DNA of 64,000 bases from Candidatus Poribacteria bacterium (GTDB lineage Bacteria > Poribacteria > WGA-4E > WGA-3G): assembly GCA_965204285.1 (NCBI GenBank), contig OZ241980.1:261811-325810 (forward strand). The letters are read 5' to 3'. Under the pieces are notes generated by a model that saw only the letters and a program-made list of their open reading frames with translations, ran no database searches and was not told the DNA's origin. Positions 2,179-18,446 of the stretch are shown one piece after another. The first letter of the stretch is position 1. The number at the start of each line of letters is the position of its first letter. The translations under genes and the position numbers were made by a program.

Positions 2179-2958
2179 ATGAGATATAAAAATGTCTACA
2201 TTACAACTATCCTATTGATATTTTTCATCACCCCGCTCGCGATCAGTAAAGATGCTGGATATGATTCCACTTTTGGTCGCACCTCGCTTTCAAATGGAAA
2301 AGATATTGAATATGATTTCACATTTGTCCGGTTGAAATATAGTGGTAGTTTTCGGCATAAGAGTTTGTGGCATATAGATTACCCTGCAGCTGAACGAAAC
2401 TTACTCATTCAACTCAACAAACATACAGACATTAAAGCGAGTCCTGAAGAAAAAGTTATTGAGGTAGGTTCACCAGAACTTTTTGATTATCCTTTTGCAT
2501 ATATAGCGGAATTGAGTCGGCTTAACCTTTCCAAAGCAGAAGCTGAAAATCTTCGGGAGTATCTGTTACGCGGTGGGTTTATCATGATGGACGATTTTCA
2601 CGGCACTGAACAGTGGAGAAGATTCTATAAACAGTACAAGAAGATCTTCCCCAAACGCGAACCGAGAGATATTCCAATGACACACCCGCTTTTCCAATGC
2701 TTCTTTAAGATTGACAAACTGATGCAAATCCCCGCACCCGCTGCCTACCGAAGCGGAAGAACACATGAAAAGGATGGGTATCAAGTGAAATGCATGGGTG
2801 TGTTTGATGATCAAGGCAGACTTATGATGATGATTAACTTCAATACGGATTTAGGGGATGCATGGCAAAATGCTGCAGAATCGTTTTATCCGCGTAAATT
2901 TTCCGATATGGCATTCAAAATGGGGATTAACGCTATTGTCTACACGCTTACCCATTAA
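2179..2958 (+). CDS. DUF4159-family protein, secreted
   Basis: It has an N-terminal signal-like hydrophobic segment. The block PFAYIAELS...LREYLLRGGFIMMDDFHG...W...F...IFP...HPLF is typical of DUF4159. I prefer the ATG at 2179 to the GTG at 2167 listed in the ORF track. Confidence 0.55.
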   Translation: MRYKNVYITTILLIFFITPLAISKDAGYDSTFGRTSLSNGKDIEYDFTFVRLKYSGSFRHKSLWHIDYPAAERNLLIQLNKHTDIKASPEEKVIEVGSPELFDYPFAYIAELSRLNLSKAEAENLREYLLRGGFIMMDDFHGTEQWRRFYKQYKKIFPKREPRDIPMTHPLFQCFFKIDKLMQIPAPAAYRSGRTHEKDGYQVKCMGVFDDQGRLMMMINFNTDLGDAWQNAAESFYPRKFSDMAFKMGINAIVYTLTH

Positions 2959-3071
2959 AGTTATAATATTCGCTTAGTACATTAACATTTTCCCTCCTCC
3001 ATTAAAACCTTAATTTCTTCCGTTCTTTCCAACTTTTTTTCCTCTTTCCCTTAAAAAATCAATTTTTTCTC

Positions 3072-3154
3072 AAATAATTGCAATTTTTTTTCAAAAAGTG
3101 CAATTATTGCTCTCAAAAATGTGTCTATATATTAAAAGACCAATTTATGAGGGT
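3072..3154 (+). promoter_or_regulatory. 83-bp conserved upstream element, copy A, containing AATTGCA-N16-TGCAATT and the palindrome GCAATTATTGC
   Basis: It is 81/83 identical to 5257-5339. It lies about 215 bp upstream of the start of gene 3369. Confidence 0.6.
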
Positions 3155-3368
3155 ATCTCATTATAGATTTAAAATATAACCCGTTATACTATAGTTGACT
3201 TTACACAATTAACCATGCACCGATGCCTGGCGTGAACTAAAAATTGAGTCCGAAGTAATTCGTCAAGAGTATATAGATATTCATGGAGCAGATGTCTATG
3301 AGCGACAAATGGCAGAAATTGCAAAGCACGATCGATATAAAAATAAGTAATTCAAATAGGGAGTTATC

Positions 3369-4151
3369 ATGTTAAAATCTTTTTTCTTTTCAAAACCTGT
3401 TGTTATCGGAATAGCAATTTTATTATTTGTCTCCACGTTATGTTTCTTATACTATCAATCGGTAATAACATCAATTGAGAAAGAACAAGCCAGCGATGAT
3501 AAGATAATTAAATCGTTAACAGAAGATGTCAAGGACTCCGATACACAGAAAATAAATAACGGTGATATAGATTTGCATGGTGACTCTGATATTGTAACTC
3601 CTGAAATTCCTGTTAAAACTAATAAAGCATTAGGCGCGGATCATGATGATTCGGATGTCGATCCATCTGTACAAGAGAATAAATTAACAATGCCTGATAT
3701 GGTAGAAAAGGAAGTTCGGATGTCTCCGTTTGGATTCGGCGCATATCCTAAAATTCCTGATGTTTACAGAGATTTGGGAGGTGTTCAAGATATATGGGGA
3801 CACTTTGAAGAGTTAGCGAAAACTGATCCTGATCAAGCAAGAATACAGGAACTTGGAGAAAGAGTGTTAGTTAAGTTATGGAATGAAGGACTGCAGCCCG
3901 AAGGTGCAAATTACTCAGAAGGTAAATTCTTTCCGCAGTATCCAAATACTGTATATGTCCAATGGGACACAATAACACTTGAAGATGGATCAACAGAAAA
4001 AATCCCAAGTCGTGTTGTAGGAGATCCGGCATTTTCCCAATTTGATCTCCAGTTTTATGAATCCAATGGACAAGATATTCCAGCTGGATTCAATTTGTTA
4101 GATTATGATAAGGATGGTATTGATCCTTATCAATTTCTCAATTTAAAATAA
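3369..4151 (+). CDS. hypothetical signal-anchored protein, paralogous family with 6191-6970
   Basis: It has an N-terminal TM segment. The C-terminal domain is conserved with 6191-6970 (SPFGFGAYPKIPD ... GIDPYQFLNLK versus SPHGLGPYPKIPD ... GIAPYDFLNLE). Confidence 0.6.
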   Translation: MLKSFFFSKPVVIGIAILLFVSTLCFLYYQSVITSIEKEQASDDKIIKSLTEDVKDSDTQKINNGDIDLHGDSDIVTPEIPVKTNKALGADHDDSDVDPSVQENKLTMPDMVEKEVRMSPFGFGAYPKIPDVYRDLGGVQDIWGHFEELAKTDPDQARIQELGERVLVKLWNEGLQPEGANYSEGKFFPQYPNTVYVQWDTITLEDGSTEKIPSRVVGDPAFSQFDLQFYESNGQDIPAGFNLLDYDKDGIDPYQFLNLK

Positions 4152-4180
4152 AGAGGTTAATTATGAAATACTTTGTTTAG

Positions 4181-4561
4181 ATGGTTCTAATATCAGGGCT
4201 TATTTTAAGCGTAATAACTGTCACATTTGCTGGCAGAAATAATGACTATGATGGATCGTTAAGTGGTCATGTCAGCACATGGCAAGGCAAGAAGGATAAA
4301 CTCCCGCGAGCGTATGCATGTGTGAATGGAGGATATAGAAAGTGGGAGGATGGGACATGGAGCCTTACTGCGTATGTGCCAAATCCGCAAACTCAAGGAT
4401 CTCCCTATGACTCTGGATCAGTGGCGTTTAACTCATGGATCTACGAGTCGCATTATCACAGAGGTCATTTCGGTGGCACGGTGAGTCAGTGTTATGCAGC
4501 CGCATTTTGTAATGCGAAAGAGATGAACGGGCCTTGGAGAACCGTTACAACGAGCTGTTAA
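4181..4561 (+). CDS. hypothetical small Cys-rich secreted protein
   Basis: The ORF has a hydrophobic N-terminus and is followed by a perfect hairpin at 4595-4628. No family was recognised. Confidence 0.3.
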   Translation: MVLISGLILSVITVTFAGRNNDYDGSLSGHVSTWQGKKDKLPRAYACVNGGYRKWEDGTWSLTAYVPNPQTQGSPYDSGSVAFNSWIYESHYHRGHFGGTVSQCYAAAFCNAKEMNGPWRTVTTSC

Positions 4562-4594
4562 AATTGAACAGTGTCAATAAGTTAACGCTACAGA

Positions 4595-4628
4595 ATTGCA
4601 CCTCTGTAGCGTTAAGCTGAGCAAACGT
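4595..4628 (+). terminator. stem-loop ttaacgctacag-N9-ctgtagcgttaa, a putative terminator
   Basis: It is a perfect 12-bp inverted repeat immediately after the stop of 4181-4561. There is no clear U-tract. Confidence 0.4.
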
Positions 4629-4676
4629 TCCCAAGAGGAGATCAAATTTACAACCTATCAGAAACTATTTTAACCC

Positions 4677-4820
4677 AAGTTGCTACCTATAAGATTTCAG
4701 ACACGCAGACACCATTTTTAATAGAGAACAGTTCGTTATTGGTGAATATCGTAGCGCAAACTTTCAGTTTGCGTTGTTTTATGCACAAACTAAAAGTTTG
4801 TGCTACATAGGTGGCAACTT
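4677..4820. mobile_element. MITE-like element family 2, copy 1 (TIR aagttgctacct / aggtggcaactt)
   Basis: It has 12-bp terminal inverted repeats. Two internal hairpins are present: gcgcaaactttcagtttgcg and gcacaaactaaaagtttgtgc. A second copy with the same TIRs and the same flanking ttttaaccc lies at 55202-55344. Confidence 0.6.
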
Positions 4821-4885
4821 ATACCATTTCTAAATAATGATATTACATTATTTCATAAATCGGTTGTCCGAATGCAGCACCCTCT

Positions 4886-4918
4886 TCTGTAGGAGCGACC
4901 TCCTGGTCGCTCCTACAA
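4886..4918. repeat. short perfect palindrome related to REP family 1 (tgtaggagcgacc-tcc-tggtcgctcctaca)
   Basis: Seen directly in the sequence. It shares the ctgtaggagcg arm start with family 1. Confidence 0.6.
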
Positions 4919-5256
4919 AGAAACTCAAAAATCGGAATGATACTTTGTCAATTAGAAATGGTATTAGGTTATTTTAAGTAAACACATTCAAGCGAGGTAA
5001 TCAAGATGTTTCCCATATTAAGAAGCTAAGCAAGACCTTTATACGGTAATTTTGATGCTAATATAGCAGCTATGGCATTCGTAATGCAGCAAATTAATGC
5101 AGTTAATTCACTTGTCAATATGAACAACACTGAGCCGCAAATTAGAACCCTATGAACCTACTCAAATTACTCAGCAGTTACAGACGAATGACGACTTACC
5201 GCGAGAACTGCGATTTATGCACATCCGCCCGTAACATTTTTAATAATAGCACACTG

Positions 5257-5339
5257 AAATAATTGCAATTTTTTTTCAAAAAGTGCAATTATTGCCCTCA
5301 AAAATGTGTCTATATATTAAAAGACCAATTTATGAGAGT
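5257..5339 (+). promoter_or_regulatory. 83-bp conserved upstream element, copy B
   Basis: It is near-identical to 3072-3154. It lies about 215 bp upstream of gene 5555-6175, which is followed by 6191-6970. Confidence 0.6.
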
Positions 5340-5554
5340 GTTTTCTTATGGATTTGGTATAATTCAGCTAAGAGAAAAATGGATTGTTTTACCTATCTCT
5401 ATTTAAGACTTTTTATTTGATTTGCTGCGTGTGATACACACATTTTACATTACAGTAGATTTTACAACACATCTTTGGCAGGCGTGTTTTTTTAGGGGAG
5501 GCGCCAACTGGCCAATGTGCACATATTTTACATTTTAATTTGGAGGACGCAAAC

Positions 5555-6175
5555 ATGAAAACCACTCTTAGCACTTTCCCGTACGTTGTCACTCTACTTC
5601 TTGTTGTCTTGTCGTTTGCACTCGGTTGTGGCGACGAAGACGACAACGTTGTTATTATCCAACCAACCGAACCACCGATAGAGGAAGTGATCAAGGAACC
5701 TATAGAAGAAGTTGATGAAAAATTAACGTCTACACAACGCGCACGAAAACTGATGAATGAAGTTAATCAGAAAAGAACAGAGGCATACCAACAAGCAGAA
5801 GAAGAAAATGATTTTACCACGTTGCCTGAAACTTCTGAAGAAATCTTCAAAGAAATCCTCGGATTTGAAGAAAATTTTACAAACAAGTTGCTTGGAACAT
5901 GGGAGGCTGCTCTAAGAGCTGCGTTGGTGGTTAAGCGAATAGATAACGCTACAATGAAAAGGTATGAAAATTTTAAAATCGCTTACTTAGGAAAAATCCA
6001 TCTGCAAAATGGTAAACCTTATTTTGAATTTATCGGTGCTTATGATGACATTATCGCGGAGTATTTGCGAATTCAATTTGAATTTCCTGGCACACCTGAA
6101 GAAAAAATTCTTAATATGTTTGGCGATTCTCTGCTTAGAGGAAACACAGACATAATCTATCCAGAAGGTTTTTAA
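5555..6175 (+). CDS. putative lipoprotein, hypothetical
   Basis: GGAGG lies 7 nt upstream of the ATG at 5555. The signal peptide ends ...SFALGCGDEDD, which is lipobox-like. The mature part is acidic and low-complexity. Confidence 0.5.
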   Translation: MKTTLSTFPYVVTLLLVVLSFALGCGDEDDNVVIIQPTEPPIEEVIKEPIEEVDEKLTSTQRARKLMNEVNQKRTEAYQQAEEENDFTTLPETSEEIFKEILGFEENFTNKLLGTWEAALRAALVVKRIDNATMKRYENFKIAYLGKIHLQNGKPYFEFIGAYDDIIAEYLRIQFEFPGTPEEKILNMFGDSLLRGNTDIIYPEGF

Positions 6176-6190
6176 GCATGGAGGCTTGTC

Positions 6191-6970
6191 TTGTTACGGG
6201 ATATTTTCACCAATAAATGGGTTTTAAGTGCCTTGGCTTTTCTGTTTACTCTGACACTCTGTTGTTGGTTCTATTATCACAACGTTTCCAGCGAAATTGA
6301 GAAAGAACAATTGCGTCTGGATCAACTTATGCAACGCAATACGGATCGTGATAGTGAAAATGTCTTGACAGATAACACCCAACATATAAAGAGGCAAACG
6401 CAAGCAAGTCAACACAAAGATAAACCAAATTCTGACTTCGTCGTGTTGCCAGAGCAAACATCACCCCAAGAAACATCGCATCTCAAAACGCCAGAGAACC
6501 TATCCGATATAGATGAAAAGCGGGATGAAGTTGTTGTATCACCACATGGGTTAGGACCTTATCCTAAGATTCCTGATGGCTGGAATCCGCATGCTTTTGA
6601 TGGCGAGATGACGATTGGTCAAGAATTGATAGAACGTGTCCGTATAAAAATGTTCAATGAAGGCATATATACGTATGGGGGCACCATAGACAACGGAACA
6701 GGTTTGGTGTATCCTATCACGCGCCACCGAGTTTATATTCGATGGGAAGAAGCAGTATTGCCATCGCTCGGTAAAACAAGATATGCCCAGTTGATTCGGG
6801 GACACCCAGATATTGTTGCTAAAATAAAAAGCAACGCACGAGCTCGGTTGTCGGATTTACCAGAACAAATGCGTCCGATCACTGAGGTTGATATACCAGA
6901 AGGTATCAATGTCTTAGCAGAAAGTGATGGCATTGCGCCTTATGATTTTCTAAACCTTGAAAGGGAATAA
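6191..6970 (+). CDS. hypothetical signal-anchored protein, paralog of 3369-4151
   Basis: It has an N-terminal TM segment and a conserved C-terminal domain, as for 3369-4151. Confidence 0.6.
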   Translation: MLRDIFTNKWVLSALAFLFTLTLCCWFYYHNVSSEIEKEQLRLDQLMQRNTDRDSENVLTDNTQHIKRQTQASQHKDKPNSDFVVLPEQTSPQETSHLKTPENLSDIDEKRDEVVVSPHGLGPYPKIPDGWNPHAFDGEMTIGQELIERVRIKMFNEGIYTYGGTIDNGTGLVYPITRHRVYIRWEEAVLPSLGKTRYAQLIRGHPDIVAKIKSNARARLSDLPEQMRPITEVDIPEGINVLAESDGIAPYDFLNLERE

Positions 6971-7000
6971 TCTTTCAATCTATAAAAAGGAAGGAATATT

Positions 7001-7501
7001 ATGAAAAAACTTTCGACGATCACGATCACAACGTTATTTATTTTCGCTGCTGTTCAGATATCAGTGATAGCTGTGAATAATAATGGAACAAGTCATTATC
7101 CATTTGAATTTGGTGTGTATTCAGGCATATCCCGCTATGTCAGCGATACAGATAGCCCTTTAAGTTCATGGGCATGCACTGGGATTTTTAGTCGCTCCGC
7201 AGATGAAGACTTGGGTCTACAACTCATATATAACTGGTCAGCATCCGCAGGTGTTTATTGTTCGGATGGCAATTATCGAGGCAGTTCCGATATGCGTGCG
7301 GATATTATGACATTTTATCGGACGGGCAGTAGTGATTTTGTAGGCGAAGTGAGCGAATATGTGGGTTTTTATGTCCAAATGGAACCACCGCCAGATAACG
7401 TCACTTTGGATATAGAAGATTGCAGTTCCCACGGTGAAATTGATGGTGAAAACCAGATAAATGGTAACTCGCGGAGTTCGCGCTCTGAGATACCATTTTA
7501 A
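7001..7501 (+). CDS. hypothetical secreted protein
   Basis: It begins with a signal peptide (MKKLSTITITTLFIFAAVQISVIA). GGAAGG lies upstream. Confidence 0.45.
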   Translation: MKKLSTITITTLFIFAAVQISVIAVNNNGTSHYPFEFGVYSGISRYVSDTDSPLSSWACTGIFSRSADEDLGLQLIYNWSASAGVYCSDGNYRGSSDMRADIMTFYRTGSSDFVGEVSEYVGFYVQMEPPPDNVTLDIEDCSSHGEIDGENQINGNSRSSRSEIPF

Positions 7502-7514
7502 CCATTACATGTGT

Positions 7515-7542
7515 CTTGCGCGGAGACGTTAAACCCGCGCTC
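7515..7542 (+). repeat. hairpin motif tgcgcgg-agacgttaaac-ccgcgc
   Basis: It lies immediately 3' of the stop of 7001-7501. The same motif recurs at 10100-10127 after the stop of 9845-10087. Confidence 0.5.
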
Positions 7543-7560
7543 TAACAAAAGGAGAATTTA

Positions 7561-7950
7561 ATGAATAACAAATTCTTACAACAATGCATCGCGCTTTCGG
7601 TGCTGTGCTGTATTGTATTAGCATTTATATTAATTATTAATGTAGAGGAAGCCGAATCCTTTATCATATGGTTTATAATTTGGTTGTTGAATAGAGTTAT
7701 AGATGCCGTAGAGGCACTTTGGGATTGGTTTAGCGACATAATCAATAGTATTCCGGCGATTGTGCAATCTATATCAAGATGTGCTACGGCTGTTTCTGCA
7801 TGTATGTCGGCTGTGCAGGAAGTATATGACGCTTTACAGATAGCTGAAGATGATCCGACATTATCGAATGTTTCTGCTGTATCGGCTAAAATTGCAGTTG
7901 CATACAATACATGTGGTGACGTGTGGGGCGAATGTTTCCCAGATGATTGA
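7561..7950 (+). CDS. hypothetical small membrane protein, Cys-containing
   Basis: AAAGGAG lies upstream. There are two predicted hydrophobic helices. Confidence 0.45.
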   Translation: MNNKFLQQCIALSVLCCIVLAFILIINVEEAESFIIWFIIWLLNRVIDAVEALWDWFSDIINSIPAIVQSISRCATAVSACMSAVQEVYDALQIAEDDPTLSNVSAVSAKIAVAYNTCGDVWGECFPDD

Positions 7951-8011
7951 CCTAATGGCAGCGCAAGCTTTCAACATAAAATTGCGCTGCCTCAACAAAA
8001 GGAGAATATAA

Positions 8012-8746
8012 ATGAAATTCCGACTAATGTTTTCTCTTAGCCTTTTAATACTTTTTTTGGGATGTGGCAGTAGTGATGATAACAGTGAGACACATTGGAA
8101 TGTCATAAATCAGGAAATACCAGAAGCCGATGTCATTCATAGCAATAAAGCTGAAGAGGTCCTTGCACAACTAAAACAAGAATTTGCAGGCGATATTCTT
8201 GATGATGATTTTCAGACAATCAAAGAACTCACGAATTCTCCAACCTATCTGAAGTTCATTTCGCAGGATGTTGAATATGGGTCATTTATGGATTATGTGG
8301 ATGCGAATATTCCACCAAAACACTGGTTTCAAGAACTAATTGAAAATTGGATCGACAACCCTGAAGATGCGGATTATTTAGTCACATATTATATCGTATC
8401 TAATGGTCGACATGGAAGAGCTCTTGAATACCAAGGTGAACCGGAAGGTACTGCTGATGAATTAATGACTGAGACGTTCGCCGAACCCCACGTATGGGCA
8501 TGGTTGAATGGACGTTTTCCAGATAATCGCGCATTTGTATTGTTTACAGTTGAGCTCGCTATTAGAGAAAGACAGTTAGAAGAAGAAGATATTTCAATAT
8601 GTGATGGATTAATTAATGATTTTGGACAGGATGATGGAATGATCATGTTCGCTTTAAACTATCCATTCAGGTTGCCTCAAATTTTAAATGATTTCAGTGA
8701 CATAGATATTTTCCTGAAATGGACAAAGGGAGAGTTTACTAAATGA
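8012..8746 (+). CDS. putative lipoprotein, hypothetical, acidic
   Basis: AAAGGAG RBS. The signal peptide ends LILFLGCGSSDD. The stop overlaps the next start as ATGA. Confidence 0.5.
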   Translation: MKFRLMFSLSLLILFLGCGSSDDNSETHWNVINQEIPEADVIHSNKAEEVLAQLKQEFAGDILDDDFQTIKELTNSPTYLKFISQDVEYGSFMDYVDANIPPKHWFQELIENWIDNPEDADYLVTYYIVSNGRHGRALEYQGEPEGTADELMTETFAEPHVWAWLNGRFPDNRAFVLFTVELAIRERQLEEEDISICDGLINDFGQDDGMIMFALNYPFRLPQILNDFSDIDIFLKWTKGEFTK

Positions 8747-9456
8747 AGCGCAAGTATTTTTTATATGTTTTAATTTCTATGGCCTTTATAATTCTCTGTA
8801 TATGGTTTTCTATACTTGATAAGCAAATTAAACAAAATATATCTGATCCGGTGACTGTGACAGAAACTAAGGTCAACGAATCTATCTCAATGCCAATAAA
8901 AAAGGCATTTGACACCAAAAAACCTCAGAATAAAAAATCGACGATTGGACAAGAATATAAAGATGTTATTTTGAGTTTTCTTCCATCCCACATGCACGAT
9001 TCTCCTGAAATGAAAAAAATCTTAGCGGTTTTCGAAAGTGAAGAATTTGAGACATTTATAAAAAATAATCCCCAAGGACTCGGTGACTTTTACGACTTCT
9101 TTCAATCACAAGGATTACCTCTGGATAAGAATGAATTATTTGCTGAATATGATAACGATTTCAAAAAATTATTTCCGAATCACACGACAGAACAAATTGG
9201 AGAACTTTTACATTTAGACCTTTTTGCTCGATTTCTTGAAAACGATGTGTATGTCCATTTCTATGAAGACGAAGCACATGGTTTAGAAACTTTTGAAAAT
9301 GTTCTGACGGATTTTACTCTGGAGTCCCATAATAAAATCTGGATGAACGCTCATTTCAAGGGAAATCATCGTGATTTTGGTGTGTGGGCAATGAATGTTC
9401 TTCAGGACCTGAGTATCTTTGAAATGGATAAAGATAAAATACGTCCCTACCTTTGA
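8743..9456 (+). CDS. hypothetical signal-anchored protein
   Basis: Its start overlaps the stop of the previous gene as ATGA, suggesting translational coupling. It has an N-terminal TM segment. Confidence 0.45.
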   Translation: MKRKYFLYVLISMAFIILCIWFSILDKQIKQNISDPVTVTETKVNESISMPIKKAFDTKKPQNKKSTIGQEYKDVILSFLPSHMHDSPEMKKILAVFESEEFETFIKNNPQGLGDFYDFFQSQGLPLDKNELFAEYDNDFKKLFPNHTTEQIGELLHLDLFARFLENDVYVHFYEDEAHGLETFENVLTDFTLESHNKIWMNAHFKGNHRDFGVWAMNVLQDLSIFEMDKDKIRPYL

Positions 9457-9848
9457 ACAAATTTCGTGCATACTTAACTCCTGAAGAAAATGAAACCCTA
9501 CGGGCACTGATGAATCAAGAGGATAAAAATACACCCGTTCCCACTCTTGATACTTCAGACGATATAATAACCGAAACTGTTACCAACACACCAATACCGC
9601 CTGTAACTCAAGATACATCTACCAAAACTGCTATACCCGAAAATACTCATGTATCTCATGATAAGAGATTCAGGAGTAGTCTTCATAAAACTTTTGAACA
9701 ATTTAAGGACTCAAATGTTCGCTTCCGATCCGCAATGCAGATCGTAGAACAATACGGTGTCCAAGAAGGACTCCATCAGATCAGAGAAAATGATCCTGAG
9801 ATGGCAATAATTGTTGAACGTTATCTGAAACAACAGGAGAAAAAATGA
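9453..9848 (+). CDS. hypothetical protein; start uncertain (TTG at 9453 or ATG at 9509)
   Basis: It is an in-frame ORF within a coupled gene string. It contains a Thr/Pro-rich linker. Confidence 0.35.
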   Translation: MNKFRAYLTPEENETLRALMNQEDKNTPVPTLDTSDDIITETVTNTPIPPVTQDTSTKTAIPENTHVSHDKRFRSSLHKTFEQFKDSNVRFRSAMQIVEQYGVQEGLHQIRENDPEMAIIVERYLKQQEKK

Positions 9849-10087
9849 AAAAACTGTATTTTTTCTTCTCTATAGCAGTGCTCATTATATTTGTTGCTAT
9901 CTTGTATGTTGTGGGTCATGCAACGGATACAACGTTAACAGACCCACTCAAAGAAGAAACTTCAATTAGTGTAACAGAGTCTGTAAAATCGAAAACGATT
10001 AAGAAAGGTTGTGGATGTTGTGAAAATCGTATGAAACGGTTAATGAAGAAATATAGAAATAAGAAAGCGGCAGCAAGTTCAAAGTAA
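9845..10087 (+). CDS. hypothetical small membrane protein with a GCGCC motif
   Basis: It has an ATGA overlap with the upstream gene and a single TM helix. The recurrent hairpin 10100-10127 follows it. Confidence 0.4.
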   Translation: MKKLYFFFSIAVLIIFVAILYVVGHATDTTLTDPLKEETSISVTESVKSKTIKKGCGCCENRMKRLMKKYRNKKAAASSK

Positions 10088-10099
10088 CAATTCATGCGT

Positions 10100-10127
10100 C
10101 CTGCGCGGAGACGTAAAACCCGCGCAC
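10100..10127 (+). repeat. hairpin motif ctgcgcgg-agacgtaaaac-ccgcgc, second copy
   Basis: It is near-identical to 7515-7542. Confidence 0.5.
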
Positions 10128-10211
10128 AAATACCGTAAAATCCATAGGTCGTGTTGAGTTTTGCGGAATTCAAAATAGCAACTAACAACAACCAAAACAA
10201 GGAGGAATACC

Positions 10212-10496
10212 ATGGCTACATATAACGCTACAGTTCATAGAGTAATAGATGGTGATACGTTTGAAACTACATCTGGTAAAAAGATTAGGTTACATGATGT
10301 ATACGCGCCTGAAGCAGGAGAAGACGGCGGAGCTTTGGCTGCCAGCAGATTAAAAAATCTTATAGATGGTAAATCTGTAAAGATTCAAGAGTTGTATAGC
10401 AATTATGATAGAGAAGTTTCTGAAGTATGGCGAAATTCAGATGGACTTCATGTTAATCGAGCAATGAGAAATTTTGGTTATACCAAAAATTCATAA
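10212..10496 (+). CDS. minimal SNase-like (thermonuclease-fold) protein
   Basis: AAGGAGG RBS. It is alignable to staphylococcal nuclease: VIDGDTF, RLHDVYAPE (cf. RLLLVDTPE), and a later ...WRNSDGLHVNRAMRNFGY segment. There is no signal peptide. Confidence 0.55.
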   Translation: MATYNATVHRVIDGDTFETTSGKKIRLHDVYAPEAGEDGGALAASRLKNLIDGKSVKIQELYSNYDREVSEVWRNSDGLHVNRAMRNFGYTKNS

Positions 10497-12658
10497 TCAA
10501 TTAAAACCGAAATAAATAACGTTCAGAGTCGTTCAGTTTAAGGTTTTATCTTTACTTTAGCATGGTCGCGCCCAGGAGTTTCGCTCCTATAGTAAGATAT
10601 CCTTGTAAGAAGGTAGAAACCATTGGAAAATTGAATGGCTCTGAAGCGCGTTTATACAACTTCAATCAGTTCAAATCTGATGAGATTTTCCGTAAATTCA
10701 AAATCATTTTTTAATTGACTTATACTTTTAAATTCTAATTATGTTATACTAATCCTTGTAAAATGTAATACGCTCCAATTTGATTGTGAGATAACCTATG
10801 CAATACAATGATGCTGACCTGATTCAACGCACCTTAGAAGGTGATCAGCAAGCTTTTACGGATCTTGTGGAAAAATACCAAAAACAGATACACGCGTTGG
10901 CGTGGCAGAAGATTGGTGATTTTCACATTGCACAGGAAATTACGCAGGACGCTTTTTTAACTGCGTATCAAAAACTCGCGACGCTCACACATCACAGCCA
11001 GTTTTCAGGATGGATCTATGCTATTACCAGCAATAAGTGCAAAAATTGGCGGCGAAAGAAAAGACTGGCATTTCAATCCTTACAAACAATAGATCCTGTT
11101 GAATTAGAGGAGGTGTATTATTCAGAGTATATGACTAAACAACGCGAAGAAGCAGTAAATCGAAAACGACGCGCTATTGTGCAGAAATTGTTAAGTAAGC
11201 TGCAAGAGAGTGACCGCACCATCGTAAATCTATTTTACATCGCAGAAATGACCTGTGAGGATATTGGAAGGTTTTTAGGTGTATCTCCTAACACCGTCCG
11301 TAGTAGACTCCACCGCGCACGCAACCGATTAAAGAAGGAAGAAGCGATGATTAAAGAAAACTTAAGTAGTTTCCAATTGCCAACACAATTAACTGAAAAC
11401 ATTATGAAAGAGATTTCACACCTTAATCCAGTAGCACCTTCAGGAAACAGACCTCTGGTGCCAATAGTTGTTTCTGCCGCCTCAGCCATTTTAGTACTAT
11501 TGCTGATGGGTGCTGGCACACAATACTTAAATCGTTTTCAGAAACCGTATAGCTTAAACGCACAATCAGAACCGACAATTGAAATAACAGAGACACAACT
11601 TGTCATTGACATGCCAGCAGAACCTGCAGTACGCAACCAGATTGGACGTTCAGATGTCCCAGGCCAAAGTGACGGTGCGGGACAGAAACCAGACACACCA
11701 CTATTCGCTGCAGCACAAGCGGATGATGCCGAAATTTTAAAGGTAAAGCCGCAGTGGGTTAAAACAAAAGGATTTGAAGGCGGTGTAATTAATTCACTTT
11801 TCTCAACAACGCGTAGAGACATTTTTGCAGAGACTACTACAACTCTCTACAAACTCTCAGACAATGGAACGAGATGGAAACCTGTCAAAATATGGTATGC
11901 ACCTTCACTTAGATGGACAGATTGGTCAATAGGTGGCAGACGGATGGTTGAGTCGAACGACACACTCTACATCGTCACAAATGAAGAAATTTGGGCATCC
12001 GTTGATAGAGGAGAGACATGGAATTCACTTGGAACACATCCCGAAGGACCGCCAATAGGTATGGTAAGAACCGATGCAGGGTTTTATCTTGGCCTTGCCG
12101 ATGGGATTTACAGATCTGAAGATGGTATGGCACCGTGGATATCTCTAAAAGATGGAATGGAACCAGGAAAAATTAAGGCGATTGCTGCAGTGGAAAACAC
12201 AGTTTTTGCAGGGACCAATAACGGACTCTATCGTCTCAAAACAGGTGTATGGGAAAAAGTATCAATTAATCAGCCAGATAATACAGAACAAAATCAGGTT
12301 ATCCATGCACTGGCAGTTTCTGAACGCCAACTTTATGCAGCAGTAGGAAAGAAGTTTGAATATAGGTCGGGAAAGCAGCATCAATTAGAACTTACAAATG
12401 ATTCTTGGTGGTCACTCTATCGCTCTAATGATTTTGGTAATTCATGGGATTCCATAGATCCAAGGAAAAGACCATTAAACGAGATAAAATCGAAAAGTGA
12501 AGTGCCAATCAATTTTCCACCCAATGGTGTCAATGTAGCATTAGGTGCAAACCTAAAGATAATAGCGGAAAAAGAAAAAGTTATGGTTGCTGTCCCATCA
12601 GAATTATTCTACTCAATCGATACTGGTGAGACATGGAATTACTTCAGTTTAAATGATA

Positions 12659-13671
12659 ACGTGAGTTTGATAAATAGTATTAGAAATTACATATCATTGG
12701 CAACTGATAGTCATTTTCTTTAAGTTCTTTATGTTTAAGTGAAGGTTTTTTCTGTAGACAGGTATAAGCGATCAAGGCAGCAACTGCATTCACTTGAAAG
12801 TTAACAGGACTTCTATGGCGTGTGTGTTGTATCTCTGTCTGACTTTTAAGTTCTTTATTCACCGACTCAATAAGCATGCGTTTTTTTAGAAGTGCTGCAT
12901 CAGCATCAGACAAAGGTTCAGGTTTCATATTCTTACGCACCTTGTAAATGAGCGTCACACCGTCTTCTTGGAGTCTCTCCCGCAGATTTTTGTTGATATA
13001 CCCTTTATCGGCAAATAGTTTGCCAAAGAGCCCTTGACACAACTGTGGCACGGTTCGCCTGTCATCTACGTTTCCCGCTGTCACCATAGCGGACAAGAGT
13101 TCACCTTGGTCGTTGATGACGAGATGTAGTTTAAACCCATAGAACCATCCCATAGAGGTTTTAGAACGCTCCGCATAATCAATGAAGACGCGATGCGCTG
13201 AAATCCGGCGATTGTGGCAGACCGGCAGCGGTGTTGAGTCTATGAAGGAAATGCCACGACACTTACCGAAACGGGTGTTGAGAAAAATAGACAACAAAAC
13301 CAATACCTCTTGTGAGAGCTGCACAAAACGACTATAGCTGACAAGGTTCGGAAACGCCCAACGCAGATGGAAACAGACATAATCCTGATAATACGCTTTA
13401 AAGTTTTTATACTGCTTCTGATGAAAAAGCACAAGTATCGTCATGACTTCGCTCGGATGAAGGCGCCGGGGTCTGCCCCGTGTGTTGTTTGTTCCGGGTA
13501 TGTCCGGCAACTGGTATTGTGCTTGATATTGTTCATACGTAAGAAAAAAGTCGTCAATTTCACAGAAAAGTGTTATGATATCCATCAGAGAACTCCTTTG
13601 TAAGTATAATGGTATACTTCATCATAACAAAGGGGTTCTCTATTTACCAGTTTTTAATTATCAAACTCACG
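12659..13671 (-). mobile_element. IS982-family insertion sequence (1013 bp)
   Basis: It has perfect 15-bp terminal inverted repeats (acgtgagtttgataa ... ttatcaaactcacgt). A 10-bp direct repeat, ttaaatgata, flanks it on both sides. It encodes one 301-aa transposase. Confidence 0.75.
12680..13585 (-). CDS. IS982-family DDE transposase
   Basis: The 301-aa product begins MDIITLFCEIDDFF and contains a GFKLHLV block and later acidic residues typical of IS982/IS4-like transposases. AAGGAG RBS. Confidence 0.65.
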   Translation of the reverse strand: MDIITLFCEIDDFFLTYEQYQAQYQLPDIPGTNNTRGRPRRLHPSEVMTILVLFHQKQYKNFKAYYQDYVCFHLRWAFPNLVSYSRFVQLSQEVLVLLSIFLNTRFGKCRGISFIDSTPLPVCHNRRISAHRVFIDYAERSKTSMGWFYGFKLHLVINDQGELLSAMVTAGNVDDRRTVPQLCQGLFGKLFADKGYINKNLRERLQEDGVTLIYKVRKNMKPEPLSDADAALLKKRMLIESVNKELKSQTEIQHTRHRSPVNFQVNAVAALIAYTCLQKKPSLKHKELKENDYQLPMICNF

Positions 13672-15052
13672 TTAAATGATAGGTTAGGTGCCAGAATTCC
13701 TTCCCTTGTTCTGATGTTGGATGCAAAGACTTTCTATAGAGTTGGCGAGGCAGGCATTTATCGTACAACCGATGGGGTTAAATCGTGGCATCTGCTTAAT
13801 ACTGGATTATCAAGTGCAACCGTTACAAATATAGTCGCGATTAAAAACCGCGTCTACGCAAAAACAACCGATGAAGTTGTTACTTCAACTGATGGTGGTG
13901 AATCGTGGAGACCGCTACCTATTGATGCTAAAAATATCTTTGTAATGGCAGGATTCAACAATGAACCATATATAAGGCAATATATGAGGAACTTAAAGAA
14001 CGCACCGCCTATTCTACGTTTATCCATTGAGGACAATGAACTTACCCCTATTCCGAATATGCCTGTCTCTGAGGGATTCGATTACATTTTCCAAGAACGA
14101 ATTCCTCCATATTTGATACAATTGGGAAGTTTCGCTGTTAGCGGTGATACCTACTATGTGGAATCTGGACAGAAACTTTACAGATGGAAACTTGGTACAT
14201 ATAAATGGTACAACACAGGTGTAATGGATAAAATGAAACAACCTGATCGCCGCCATAGGGCTACCATGTCTAATGATTATCCGATTGGTATTTCTTCATT
14301 TTTTGTTTCACCCGATTTAATGAGTTTTAAAATTGCAGTTTCAGGCGAAACTATTTACGTCGGCAAACGGGATGGGCATCTCATGCACTCACTTGATGAA
14401 GGAGTTACTTGGAACGATCTTACTGATCATCTACCATTTTCTGTTAAAAGTTATAAATCAATAGTTTGCGCTGGAAACTTTGTCTTTGTGGCAACTGATA
14501 AAGGTGTTATACTGTCTGGCAATGGTGTTGACTGGCACATACTCACAGATATAGAAGGGACACCTCTTATAACAAATAAATTAGTGGTGGATGATATAGC
14601 GGTTTACTGTGAGGCTAAGCAAAAAATATATCAATTGAACAGGAACACGGGCATCTGGCAACCGGTTACACCAGAAATACCATATCCTGTTTCCAGTTTT
14701 GATGTTGATAATGACACGCTTTATGCCGGAACTTTTGGTGGGGGCGTGCTACGTTTTTCACTTGATAATCAGAATTGAGTGATGCATTTATAATATCTCC
14801 AATATTCGATTCACATTGAATTAATATTTCTCCAAGCGGGATAAAATCCCGCTTTTTTAGTTTAAGTTAAATTTATAGAATTTAAGCATTTACTTGTTTT
14901 CTGCTATAATAATTGCAACACTTATAAAATCTGAAGAGCGCAATAAAATTGATCCTACTTCTGAAAACGAACTGGCTACGTAACCCATAAATATAATTTC
15001 ACCATCTTGCCAATCTTTCCTAAAAAAATCTATAAAATTCATATTCTTTCTA

Positions 15053-15085
15053 AAAATTGCATTTTTTTTCAAAAAAGTGCAATAT
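15053..15085 (+). promoter_or_regulatory. AATTGCA-N16-TGCAAT inverted repeat, third occurrence, upstream of the intact sigma-fusion gene
   Basis: It has the same half-sites and the same T8-C-A6 spacer as the 83-bp elements at 3072 and 5257. Confidence 0.45.
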
Positions 15086-15127
15086 CTAATCAGAAAATCG
15101 CGTTTATAATTACAGAAGGTTCTTTCA

Positions 15128-15230
15128 TTGTATGGTGAACCTTGAAATTAAAGAGGCACATTTTCTGTAGGAGCGATCTCCGAATCGCGACAAAACTCAC
15201 TGATAGTCGGGAATCGGAGTTCCCTCCTAC
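15128..15230. repeat. REP-like element family 1 (arm order X-Y)
   Basis: ctgtaggagcgatctccgaatcgcgac - 14 nt - gtcgggaatcggagttccctcctac. Its 5' flank tatggtgaaccttgaaattaaagaggcacat is shared with 1821. Confidence 0.8.
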
Positions 15231-15296: not shown

Positions 15297-18200
15297 ATGA
15301 AAAACGATGATTCTGAACTAATTCAACGCACATTAGAAGGTGACCAACACGCTTTTGCTCTACTCGTAGAAAAATACCAAGAGCAGGTACACACCCTTGC
15401 GTGGCAAAAAATTGGTGATTTTCACATTGCACAAGAAATCACGCAAGATGTTTTCCTCACTGCATATCAAAAATTCTCGACCTTCACACACTACAGACAA
15501 TTTGCAGGATGGCTCTATGTTGTTACAAACCGAAAGTGCATTGCATGGCACCGGAAGAAAAAAATAAAAACACAATCAATTGATGAGACAAATCCAATTG
15601 AGTTGGAGGAAGCATATTATACAGAATATATGGCGCATCAGCGGGAAGAATCAGCAAAAGAAAAACGCCGCACTATAGTTCATAAACTGCTCAGCAAGCT
15701 AAAGGAAAGTGACCGTACAGTGATGAACCTCTATTACATCGCTGAAATGTCATGTGAAGAAATTGCTGAGTTTTTGGGTGTATCTCCCAATACGGTTCGG
15801 AGTAGACTCCACCGCGCACGCAACCGATTAAAGAAGGAGGAAGCAATGATTAAAGAAAATCTCAGCAGTTTCCAACTGCCAACACAATTAACTGAAAACA
15901 TTATGAAGGAAATTTCACGTCTCAATCCAGCGGCACCTTCTGGAAATAAACCACTTGTGCCGATAGCAGTTTCTGCCGCCGCTGCAGTTTTAGTCTTAAT
16001 GCTGATAGGGACTGGGATGCAATACTTAAATCGTTTTCAGAAACCGTATAGCTTAAACGCACAATCTGAGCCGACGATTGAGATAACAGAGACACAACTT
16101 GTCATTGACACACCAGTAAAACCGTCTGTACGGACTCAGGTTGGGAAATCTGATGTAACAGGTAGAACAGAAGGGGCAGGTCAAAAACCGGACGCGCCAC
16201 TATTGGCTGCAGCACAAGTGGATGAAGATGAAATATCAAAACCGATACGGCAATGGAGAGATGCAAAAGGACCGGAAGGTGGTGCAGTTGGTACTCTCTT
16301 CACAACAAACAGCGGTGACGTGTATGCAACGTCAAAAAACGGTCTCTACAGACTCACAGGTGATGGAAAAGCATGGAAACTCATAAACACTATTAAATAT
16401 TCTTCCGGTGATGCACTAACAGGAAGGAATGTATTTCGACATGTAGCAGAATGGCAGAATACATTCTACCGTGCTATTGATACAAAAATCTTCGCTTCTA
16501 CAGATAGAGGCGCGACATGGAAAGAATTTTGCGAGTGTATAAAAGGTGATCTTGTTGGTATGGTGATAACAGGAAGTAATCCAGAATCTGAAAGCGATAT
16601 GACAATCTACCTTGCTTACAAGAAAGGAGTCTTCCGTTCAGATAATGCTGGCAAATCGTGGACACCACTACCCGAAGGTATCAACGATAGACAAATTGGT
16701 GTAATCACTAATATAGGAAATACTGTTTTTGTCGGTACTGACAAAGGACTTTATCGTCTTAACGCTGATAAATGGGAACAATTGTCCATCGCTCAAGCAG
16801 ATACGAAAGAAAACACGCTACCTATTATTGCGATGGAAGTTGCAGAAAATAGCCTCTATGTTGTTACAAGGAAAAGTATATTTGGAGATCCTGATCCATT
16901 ATACACAAGTTTCGGTTTGTCGCGTGTAAGAATCAATTCTCGGATACCAAGAATTGGATTTAAACCTCGTGAACCATACGTGTGGTCAATCTTTCGTTCA
17001 GATGATATAGGCAATTCATGGAAAACTATTACGCCAGATAGCAACAATATAAAGAAGAAACCAGGGCAAAAGCCAAAAATCTCCAATATATTTCCACCAC
17101 GTAAGAACGAAGGCGATGCTCCCTTTATAACATCTCTGGATACAACCTTCAAAATGTCTGCAGCGGTGGGAAAGGTGGTAGTAATAGATGGTGAGGCATT
17201 CTTTTTTTCTATCAATGCTGGTGAAACTTGGAGAACCGTAGACAAAACGGCTAATATAGGTAAGACTTCTGGTTTGGCATTGTTAAATGAGAATACTATC
17301 TATGTATCTGGAAGATTCGGAATTTATCGCTCGACTGATGGCGGAGAATCATGGCATGAATTTAATACCGGTTTAGTGAACACAGAAGTTCGGGAATTAA
17401 TTGCTGTTAAAGGAACCCTCTACGCAAACACAAGAACTGGACTTTTCAGTTCTGTTGACGGTGGAGAATCGTGGATACCTGTTCCAGGCGATACTGGCTA
17501 TCTCACGCGTTTGGCGAAATTTAACGAGGAGCTCTATGTAAGAGATGATAAAATCGGTGCACCCCGGTTTTTCCGCTTTTCCGCCAAAGACAATAGACTC
17601 ATGGACATCTCAGAAATACCTGCCTTTAAAAAAGTTGATTTTCATAAAGAAGTACGTGAGAAACCAATTCAGGATAGAGGACCTATAACATCGGTACCAC
17701 ACGGAAAGGGAAGTTTTTATACGTTGATGCTTGGTAGCTTTGCTGTCAATGATGGAACGTATTATGTGGAATATATGCAAAAACTCTTCAAATGGAAATC
17801 TGGTATACCTGAATGGTCCAACACTGGATTATTAGATAAAATTGGTATCGAGAAAAATTGGTATTCCAATAACTTATTCGATTCTATTGGCTTTAGGCTT
17901 GCTGCCTCAGAGAATAATGTTTACGTTGGAAAATGGGATGGTCATCTCATGCAATCGTTTGATGAAGGCAACACATGGAATGATGTCACCGCGAATCTTC
18001 CATTTTCTGTCGTCCATTTTAGGGCAATAGTTTTCGCTGGAAACTTTGTTTATGTCGCAACCGACAAGGGCGTCGTGCTGTCAGGCAACGGCAATGACTG
18101 GCACATACTCACTGATGCAGAAGGGGCTGCTCTTGTTATGAATAGATTAGCAGTGGATGACACGACGGTTTACGGGGAATCTAAGCGAATAGTTTACCAA

Positions 18201-18338
18201 CTGAACAGGAATTCTGGCACGTGGCTGCAAGTCACGCCAGAAATTTCATATCCTGTTAACTGTCTTGCTGTTGATGGGGATACGCTTTATGTCGGTACAG
18301 CTGGATCCGGGGCACTCCGCTTTTCGCTTGATAATTAA
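15297..18338 (+). CDS. ECF sigma-70 domain / single TM / BNR-Asp-box beta-propeller fusion protein (intact paralog C, 1013 aa)
   Basis: The N-terminus has sigma-70 region 2 (LVEKYQEQVHTLAWQKIGDFHIAQEITQDVFLTAY) and region 4 (DRTVMNLYYIAEMSCEEIAEFLGVSPNTVRSRLHRARNRL). A hydrophobic helix follows (LVPIAVSAAAAVLVLMLIGTG). The rest is about 750 aa with repeated S-x-D-x-G-x-(S/T)-W motifs. Confidence 0.8.
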   Translation: MKNDDSELIQRTLEGDQHAFALLVEKYQEQVHTLAWQKIGDFHIAQEITQDVFLTAYQKFSTFTHYRQFAGWLYVVTNRKCIAWHRKKKIKTQSIDETNPIELEEAYYTEYMAHQREESAKEKRRTIVHKLLSKLKESDRTVMNLYYIAEMSCEEIAEFLGVSPNTVRSRLHRARNRLKKEEAMIKENLSSFQLPTQLTENIMKEISRLNPAAPSGNKPLVPIAVSAAAAVLVLMLIGTGMQYLNRFQKPYSLNAQSEPTIEITETQLVIDTPVKPSVRTQVGKSDVTGRTEGAGQKPDAPLLAAAQVDEDEISKPIRQWRDAKGPEGGAVGTLFTTNSGDVYATSKNGLYRLTGDGKAWKLINTIKYSSGDALTGRNVFRHVAEWQNTFYRAIDTKIFASTDRGATWKEFCECIKGDLVGMVITGSNPESESDMTIYLAYKKGVFRSDNAGKSWTPLPEGINDRQIGVITNIGNTVFVGTDKGLYRLNADKWEQLSIAQADTKENTLPIIAMEVAENSLYVVTRKSIFGDPDPLYTSFGLSRVRINSRIPRIGFKPREPYVWSIFRSDDIGNSWKTITPDSNNIKKKPGQKPKISNIFPPRKNEGDAPFITSLDTTFKMSAAVGKVVVIDGEAFFFSINAGETWRTVDKTANIGKTSGLALLNENTIYVSGRFGIYRSTDGGESWHEFNTGLVNTEVRELIAVKGTLYANTRTGLFSSVDGGESWIPVPGDTGYLTRLAKFNEELYVRDDKIGAPRFFRFSAKDNRLMDISEIPAFKKVDFHKEVREKPIQDRGPITSVPHGKGSFYTLMLGSFAVNDGTYYVEYMQKLFKWKSGIPEWSNTGLLDKIGIEKNWYSNNLFDSIGFRLAASENNVYVGKWDGHLMQSFDEGNTWNDVTANLPFSVVHFRAIVFAGNFVYVATDKGVVLSGNGNDWHILTDAEGAALVMNRLAVDDTTVYGESKRIVYQLNRNSGTWLQVTPEISYPVNCLAVDGDTLYVGTAGSGALRFSLDN

Positions 18339-18387: not shown

Positions 18388-18446
18388 CTGTAGCGCAAAC
18401 TGTTAGTTTGCGTCACATCGGCACAAACTAACAGTTTGTGCTACAC
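18388..18446. repeat. solo internal double-hairpin of MITE-like family 2
   Basis: It has gcgcaaactgttagtttgcg and gcacaaactaacagtttgtgc but lacks the TIRs. Confidence 0.55.

Follow-up and report, generated by a model that had tools for sequence, protein, structure and literature searches.

What does a short, almost unchanged piece of non-coding DNA do in front of genes that hardly resemble one another? The question is raised by a 64,000-nt stretch of a Candidatus Poribacteria genome (GenBank assembly GCA_965204285.1, contig OZ241980.1, positions 261,811 to 325,810), hereafter the window. Its first 18 kb form an islet of genes whose products join an extracytoplasmic function (ECF) sigma factor to a transmembrane segment and a BNR/sortilin beta-propeller. 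An 83-bp element occurs within this islet at 3072-3154 (copy A) and 5257-5339 (copy B), and a third copy (copy C), more diverged than the A/B pair, lies 5' of an intact sigma-fusion gene. A sequence-only reading of the window had offered three functions for the element: an operator for a dimeric regulator, a promoter recognised by a local ECF sigma, or a small structured RNA. The second of these was strongly supported by comparative evidence: the motif is conserved, keeps its place and direction relative to genes and varies together with the sigma protein. Probably, the element is an autoregulatory ECF promoter, preceded by an AT-rich tract and followed by a short 5' leader, through which a family of membrane-anchored ECF sigmas in Poribacteria turns on its own genes and a few envelope genes nearby.

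Anatomy of the element and its three copies

Copies A and B differ at two of 83 positions (T/C at 3111/5296 and G/A at 3150/5335), as direct reading of the letters confirmed, and a repeat finder stretched the pair to 3069-3170 versus 5254-5355 at 92% identity. Outside about 100 bp no alignment was obtained between the two leaders, in agreement with their earlier description as dissimilar. The core was laid out as previously described, with AATTGCA at 3076-3082, 16 intervening nucleotides and TGCAATT at 3099-3105, but the interval reads A, T8, C, A5 and G, with a T run of eight rather than T plus T8. Only one of two supposed perfect palindromes, AATTGCAATT, is a true palindrome; in the other, GCAATTATTGC, inverted halves flank a central T, and this sequence is not kept in other genomes, where TTGACC is found. 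The third copy proved real, with TGCAAT at 15078-15083, and is longer than first described, the profile aligning over 15002-15135.

Read as a promoter, the core would consist of a -35 element TGCAAT, a 16-nt spacer and a -10 element G(T/C)GT(C/T)TA, and transcription would be expected to begin about 7 nt further on. Next would come the first ~20 nt of a conserved leader, which in the sigma genes ends in the ribosome-binding site GAGG. The bipartite form of an ECF promoter, TGCAA(T/C)-N16-G(C/T)GTCTA, was present in at least 15 independent copies. The full conserved extent of copy A runs from far-upstream A/T tracts to a remnant of the 5' untranslated region (3030-3154; nhmmer profile match, E=8e-30) and lies between a DUF4159 gene and the gene 3369-4151; these and all following window coordinates refer to the plus strand unless stated otherwise. 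When the start was set at about 3134, TGCAAT (3099-3104, matched at 3099 by the position weight matrix (PWM) described below) fell at -35 to -30, and the -10 element GTGTCTA (3121-3127, core GTCTA 3123-3127), which was recognised by column conservation 16 nt after the -35 hexamer, fell at -13 to -7. The leader remnant AAAAGACCAATTTATGAGGGT, with a Shine-Dalgarno-like GAGG, occupies 3134-3154, and the start was predicted at about 3133-3136 by geometry only. Copy B (5221-5341; nhmmer E=3.7e-27; PWM match at 5284) has its upstream arm at 5261-5267, the T8/A5 tracts at 5269-5282, the -35 element at 5284-5289, the -10 element at 5306-5312 and a predicted start at about 5319. In copy C (15002-15135; nhmmer E=7e-23; PWM score 26.5), the corresponding parts are the arm at 15055-15061, TGCAAT at 15078-15083, a -10 element GCGTTTA at 15100-15106 and a predicted start at about 15113.

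Directly 5' of the -35 element of copy A, a T8-C-A5 tract (3084-3097, about -50 to -37) resembles an upstream promoter (UP) element. A- and T-tracts of at least 3 nt are found in proximal and distal subsites, with T8 at -50 to -43 and A5 at -41 to -37, marking a putative site for the C-terminal domain of the RNA polymerase alpha subunit (alpha-CTD). These tracts, with the A/T tracts further 5', probably serve as a UP element for the alpha subunits. The upstream arm AATTGCA lies still further out in copy A, at about -58 to -52; it is lineage-specific and probably belongs to the distal AT-rich stretch. Its downstream counterpart in the inverted repeat, judged from the aligned sequences, is the -35 element itself.

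The bare core TTGCA-N16-TGCAAT is no rarer in the window than expected by chance (six strand matches with at most one mismatch versus 3.2 expected), and the extended 20-mer core is rare (three matches versus 0.06 expected). With a two-block PWM trained only on diverged sites of other genomes, and on no window sequence, the three window sites ranked first with scores of 25.4-26.5, and the next-best window site scored 15.7. Among 30 random 64-kb sequences, the median maximum was 15.3 and the overall maximum 23.5. All three sites are intergenic, lie on the plus strand and fall within the first 15.2 kb, and the remaining 49 kb outside the islet yielded no site in the same scan. A match at 13815 (15.6-15.7) was dismissed, as it is located within coding sequence and scores in the random range.

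As RNA, the 83-nt element gives a more stable fold than its shuffled versions whichever strand is taken (z = -5.2 and -5.4), and the hairpin AAUAAUUGCAAUUUUU...AAAAAGUGCAAUUAUU alone reaches -10.6 kcal/mol (z = -3.65), as would suit a small structured RNA or a terminator. The fold of copy C, however, was no better than that of many shuffles (z = -1.98), and pairing over 16 copies amounted to 69.9% versus 66.9% after shuffling, the decay being confined to one side and compensatory changes few. Instead of a U-run, CTCTCAAAAA comes after the AU-rich hairpin, and a terminator scan found no terminator-like site at 3072-3110 or 5257-5295. Moreover, the promoter geometry places the hairpin 5' of the predicted start, so that it would not be transcribed from this promoter. 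With no Rfam hit at the gathering threshold in the whole window and no covariation in the hairpin, the structured RNA of the earlier reading was given up, and we regard either RNA function as extremely improbable.

Conservation among Poribacteria and recent copying

Species-representative genomes scanned with the extended core gave 27 loci, comprising 24 scattered singletons and three Candidatus Poribacteria metagenome-assembled genomes (MAGs). About 20 more loci were collected by a metagenome scan with the sigma-transmembrane (sigma-TM) module and by context look-ups for diverse family members, and the comparison set comprised about 30 related copies on other Candidatus Poribacteria contigs. 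Labels such as L016, L019 and L020 denote related loci from other genomes, of which 8-20-kb pieces were compared.

The whole element was present in all three Poribacteria MAGs, where the coding regions are 85-90% identical to those of the window. Synteny was constant, with a DUF4159 gene followed by the element, by none to two small genes and by a sigma-fusion gene. Specifically, orthologs of copy A occupy the same place after the DUF4159 gene in L016, L019 and L020, and copy C is orthologous to L016 6402-6521, which there lies 67 nt before the sigma-fusion start codon. Across 15 independent copies, TGCAA(T/C), the 16-nt spacer with its conserved A-rich end, G(C/T)GTCTATA and TTAAAAG were invariant. 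Over 16 copies, TGC-A never varied and the T-tract and A-tract columns just 5' of TGCAAT were at least 90% conserved. The last ~20 nt of the 83-bp repeat align with the 29-nt leader AAAAGATCAATTTGTTTTTGAGGTGTGCG-ATG of sigma genes (L020, L049 and others); because its end aligns with a sigma-gene leader and ribosome-binding site, the repeat appears to comprise a promoter plus the start of a leader.

The same alignments bear on the proposal that AATTGCA-N16-TGCAATT is an operator for a dimeric regulator, instead of a promoter or overlapping one. The two arms match perfectly in copies A and B, persist in copy C, L016-1, L019 and L020-1 and are separated by about two helical turns, and among the close copies conservation reaches beyond what a core promoter would need. 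All copies with both arms are, however, close relatives, and the retention can be attributed to their shared ancestry. Diverged copies keep the downstream arm only; the upstream TTGCA has become TTGTA, TTTGC or TTACA or is gone, and where it survives the spacing is N14, N15 or N16. The G-C pair of the hairpin arms is broken in eight of 15 sequences, always on the 5' side. Among the islet open reading frames (ORFs) scanned with Pfam, several of which match no family, no DNA-binding regulator was detected besides the sigma fusions. Since one half-site decays and its spacing varies, joint conservation of two half-sites was not observed, and a dimeric operator seems improbable.

The near-identity of A and B beside fast-evolving genes had been taken as a sign of function. 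Copy A matches copy B at 98% identity, but for each of the two the identity to its orthologs in L016, L019 and L020 is 77-84%, and because of this difference their likeness is best read as the result of a recent event within this genome, in which about 100 bp were copied by duplication or gene conversion. The case for function itself stands, but it is carried by conservation between genomes. A larger segmental duplication, which could have explained the repeat, is not its source, as the copying is confined to about 100 bp. In L016 the lipoprotein gene comes immediately after a single copy, and the leader there matches the start of the copy A leader and the end of the copy B leader. Because the L016 leader joins these two ends, the window can be said to contain an extra 2.3 kb (3234-5509), missing from L016, which holds the gene 3369-4151 and copy B. 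Relative to L016, the window also has an extra 4.5 kb at 6176-10664.

Could a mobile-element remnant or a recombination site, such as a miniature inverted-repeat transposable element, an insertion sequence (IS) end or a cassette attachment site, explain the duplication alone? The islet is certainly plastic, with the 2.3-kb and 4.5-kb segments, an IS in a sigma gene and repeats resembling repetitive extragenic palindromes (REPs), and the ~100-bp module was clearly copied, in L051 together with about 14 codons before another gene. Yet the copies are not surrounded by terminal inverted repeats or target-site duplications, only three of them occur in 64 kb, all three face genes, and their position is fixed to start codons in many genomes. 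As the sole explanation, mobile DNA is very improbable. That the module can move does not conflict with a promoter role, to which its mobility would be secondary.

The L051 case is an example of promoter capture. The module, the leader and the first ~14 sigma codons (MIYNDTGLIQHT) are duplicated at 2916-3046 before an unrelated 255-aa gene, and the intact copy lies 1 kb downstream at 3937.

Placement and co-variation with the sigma-fusion genes

Of the 15 independent copies, eight directly precede a sigma-fusion gene. Viewed from the genes, the bipartite motif lies 5' of 22 of 28 non-redundant sigma-fusion genes, nearly always in sense orientation, which is the position expected of an autoregulated promoter. 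In 18 of these 22 genes, the distance from the beginning of the -35 hexamer to the start codon is 64-77 nt, most commonly exactly 64 nt, as in L020, and this distance leaves room only for the -10 element, the start site and a leader of about 29 nt ending in GAGG. Longer distances (219 nt for copy C and 308 nt in L039) coincide with REP-like hairpin insertions in the leader. The 219 nt between copy C and its ATG is accounted for by a REP-like hairpin repeat inserted at 15131-15230 (repeat families D6, D8 and I1-I3). The remaining copies, which lie in the same islets, precede genes for small membrane proteins with an N-terminal anchor, for lipoproteins or for a secreted 3-keto-disaccharide-hydrolase-like protein.

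The motif changes as the sigma domain diverges. It reads TG(A/C)AAC-N16-GCGTCAC at 53-58% sigma-domain identity and TGTAAC-N17-TGTCTTT at about 50%, and TGCAAC...GCATCTT and TGTGAC...GCGTCTT were further variants found with diverging sigmas. The -35 forms TGCAAT, TGCAAC, TG(A/C)AAC and TGTAAC are paired with the sigma 4.2 helices SPNTVRSR, (S/A)TNTVKSR, SVGAIKSR and SVETVKVR, respectively, and the helix is invariant among the six closest proteins. Thus, with two exceptions, the promoter co-varies with the DNA-recognition regions of the sigma encoded downstream. This co-variation of motif and sigma 4.2 helix is the main argument that each sigma reads its own promoter.

Several observations weigh against an autoregulatory ECF promoter. 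The -35 element of the window has AAT, whereas AAC is canonical, and the co-variation is imperfect, since the TGCAAC promoters of L028_358 and L030 go with a VRSR helix. Orthologous sigma-fusion genes at window 10798, L016 3203 and L019 2648 have no motif directly 5'. Close copies are conserved over ~125 nt, beyond the needs of a minimal promoter, and the upstream arm is retained in about nine of 16 copies; from these two features, an additional factor may be bound in this sub-lineage. Finally, 31 of 33 PWM matches in 241 kb of Poribacteria loci share the orientation of the sigma genes, a statistic that is partly circular because some training sites were picked for lying 5' of sigma genes; among the sites outside the training set, the orientation count was 15 to 2.

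Upstream of the module-less orthologs (window 10664-10797 and L016 3067-3202), a different region is shared at 85% identity and contains TTGACTTATA...TATGTTATACT. The module-less sigma genes of L016 and L019 have AATGGAACCCTCT close to the start codon. This shared region may be a separate promoter.

The promoter could instead be read by a sigma encoded elsewhere, either the housekeeping sigma-70 or another ECF sigma, with the sigma-fusion genes as targets and not as autoregulators. TATATAT or TATAAT after GTC could act as a sigma-70 -10 element, and the sigma fusion is tethered to the membrane, with ~38 residues from sigma 4 to the membrane, so that access to polymerase needs an extra step. 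However, no TTGACA-like hexamer is present 16-18 nt 5' of the TATA block, and a consensus scan missed the conserved blocks. No site was found in which the conserved TGCAAT and TATA serve as the two hexamers, the blocks being 21-24 nt apart, and sigma-70 promoter-like sites in the consensus scan were not more numerous than in shuffles. The conserved positions are ECF-like (AAC/AAT and CGT/TGT), and the joint change of motif variant and downstream sigma 4.2 helix is not expected with one remote sigma. We consider a remote sigma unlikely.

Two other promoter assignments were tried and rejected. A sigma-54 promoter calls for GG and GC 10 nt apart (TGGCAC-N5-TTGC), but GTGCAATTATTGC has GC and GC 9 nt apart with no GG, and TTGC is missing in copy C and in L016-2. 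For a divergent minus-strand promoter starting from the upstream arm, only the -35 block matched (14.1, in the random range), and the upstream gene is on the plus strand.

If the element is an autoregulatory ECF promoter, the following circuit can be proposed. The outer propeller would sense a signal and so release or activate the sigma domain, perhaps through regulated proteolysis as in IutY and as proposed for ECF52. The freed sigma would bind core polymerase and recognise TGCAAT and GTCTA, helped by alpha-CTD contacts on the T- and A-tracts. It would then transcribe its own gene from copy C, as positive autoregulation, and the nearby small membrane protein and lipoprotein genes from copies A and B. 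Copying of the module would have put a second promoter before the lipoprotein operon as the 2.3-kb segment with the gene 3369-4151 came between.

A wider possibility, which we hold tentatively and think rather less probable than not, is that the module is the shared cis-element of a lineage-specific expansion of sigma-sensor one-component proteins. Many sensors would then feed one overlapping regulon with mutual activation, a portable module of ~100-125 bp would recruit envelope genes, and the upstream arm would perhaps be a second docking site, for sigma 4 or an extra regulator, in one sub-lineage. On this view, many membrane-tethered paralogs that have different extracytoplasmic propellers and almost invariant sigma 2 and sigma 4.2 segments would all have come to use one type of promoter.

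Tandem arrays of two to four sigma-fusion paralogs, each with its own promoter copy, were seen in L049, L050, L055 and L029. The C-terminal sensor domains differ among array members (BNR/sortilin, DUF6242_C or WD40).

Genes of the islet and comparison with known systems

The intact sigma-fusion gene downstream of copy C (15297-18338, 1013 aa; Pfam Sigma70_r2, r4_2, Sigma70_ECF, Sortilin-Vps10 and DUF6242) encodes an ECF sigma (residues 1-180), a short linker, one transmembrane segment and a BNR/sortilin beta-propeller, and we propose it as both the cognate sigma factor and the autoregulated target. The alignment of sigma-fusion proteins shows the hydrophobic segment LVPIAVSAAAAVLVLMLIGTG about 38 residues after sigma 4, and Pfam found no zinc-finger or other anti-sigma domain between sigma 4 and this segment. 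Islet sigma domains passed the NCBIfam threshold only at the level of the ECF superfamily, and SigW, SigM and RpoE were the best sub-threshold matches. A second sigma-fusion gene (10798-14778) is split into 10798-12723 and 13609-14778 by an IS element on the minus strand (12655-13672; DDE_Tnp_1_3 transposase ORF 12680-13585), and its ortholog L016 3203-6166 is intact (987 aa). The split gene may be read from copy B through the long run of genes on the same strand. At 21-1784, the window edge truncates a further sigma-fusion gene, of which a C-terminal fragment is left. The window has no sigma genes other than these fusions. In L049, L050 and L055, too, family members are split, either by a transposase or by a frameshift.

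The sigma-TM family gave 1,234 database hits at E <= 1e-10, and all hits with a named source, a minority, are from Poribacteria. Its members often form tandem arrays, carry varied sensors and are frequently split. A database look-up of the exact 1013-aa sequence returned no record. Neither a description of the sigma-TM family nor one of Poribacteria sigma factors was found in the searched literature, which did not include the supplements on ECF classification, and the main text of the ECF classification paper mentions neither Poribacteria nor BNR.

Gene 3369-4151, the target of copy A, encodes an N-terminally anchored membrane protein without a Pfam family. Copy B precedes a lipoprotein-like gene (5555-6175, lipobox LSFALGC) and a membrane protein gene (6191-6970). 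As stated earlier, these genes are diverged paralogs or unrelated: 3369-4151 and 6191-6970 are 30% identical, and 5555-6175 is unrelated. The L016 ortholog of the copy B target (2242-2817) lies right after the sole promoter copy there, and in L020, L039 and L054 genes for related small membrane proteins stand behind promoter copies. The commonest non-sigma targets are small N-anchored proteins (for example, ...LGCYLWFQN...) with variable C-termini and no Pfam or NCBIfam family, and 3369-4151, 6191-6970, L020 16-792 (minus strand), L039 214-591 and L039 4003-4290 belong to this group. The ORF 10212-10496, just 5' of the disrupted sigma gene, has a sub-threshold match to staphylococcal nuclease (SNase, E=0.0018).

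Several repeat families are interspersed among these genes. REP-like GC-rich hairpins GTAGGAGCGA...TCGCTCCTAC, often arranged head to head, occur at 1823-1924 (also delimited as 1851-1924), 4885-4915 and 15159-15230, and the same family was found in L019 (5690-5807 and 7369-7399). A second, short hairpin family, GCACAAACTAAAAGTTTGTGC, is intergenic (4783-4807, 18393-18417 and 18421-18445). Additionally, a 43-nt repeat with a GC-rich stem, GCGCGGAGACGT.AAACCCGCGC, is present in two copies, 84% identical, just after genes (7503-7545 and 10088-10130); it may be a terminator common to both places or a further type of REP.

Poribacteria, for the most part associated with sponges, have not been cultivated and lack genetics. 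An autoregulatory ECF promoter is a well-known kind of control element, met here in an uncultivated phylum, and implies no new mechanism; the less ordinary aspect, outside the element itself, is the large sigma-TM family. A motif tied to a large family of sigma-sensor fusions offers a computational handle on one signalling circuit of Poribacteria, whose regulon could be read from genomes. Moreover, the locus is a clean case of a promoter module copied to wire new genes into an ECF regulon.

Bacillus subtilis sigma-W/M/X promoters have the form TGAAAC-N16-CGTA/CGTC. Predicted target promoters of Streptomyces coelicolor sigma-E have the form GCAAC-N17-CGTCTA (PMC6767563). With S. coelicolor sigma-E-type promoters the module shares an AAC-type -35 element, a CGTCT-type -10 element and a 16-17-nt spacer, and with autoregulated ECF promoters it shares a position before the sigma's own gene and envelope genes and the close similarity of motifs among paralogous sigmas. 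Unlike those promoters, the window has TGCAAT and TGTCTA/CGTTTA, and its proposed sigma is fused to a transmembrane segment and a beta-propeller instead of having a separate anti-sigma partner.

Escherichia coli sigma-E promoters carry UP elements of A/T tracts at -43/-53/-63 (Rhodius et al., PMC3326320). The module similarly has alternating T- and A-tracts at about -37 to -50 and further tracts to about -80, conserved in the family, whereas its tract centres lie at about -39 and -46 and not at the E. coli subsites of -43 and -53; alpha-CTD binding is predicted from composition and position.

ECF sigmas fused to other domains through a membrane segment include IutY (ECF243), SCO4117 (ECF52) and ECF48/53, and activation by proteolytic release has been described for IutY and proposed for ECF52 (PMC8999054). 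The Poribacteria sigma fusions resemble the IutY/ECF52 type in that a single polypeptide begins with an ECF sigma and continues through a transmembrane helix into a large extracytoplasmic domain, but differ in having a BNR/sortilin, DUF6242 or WD40 propeller as sensor and no anti-sigma domain recognisable by Pfam.

Promoter reuse in prokaryotes, in the form of "mobile promoters", was reportedly described by Matus-Garcia, Nijveen and van Passel in 2012. The A/B pair resembles such promoters as a near-identical ~100-bp promoter segment before unrelated genes of one genome, and it differs from them in comprising only two near-identical copies, confined to one islet and tied to one sigma family.

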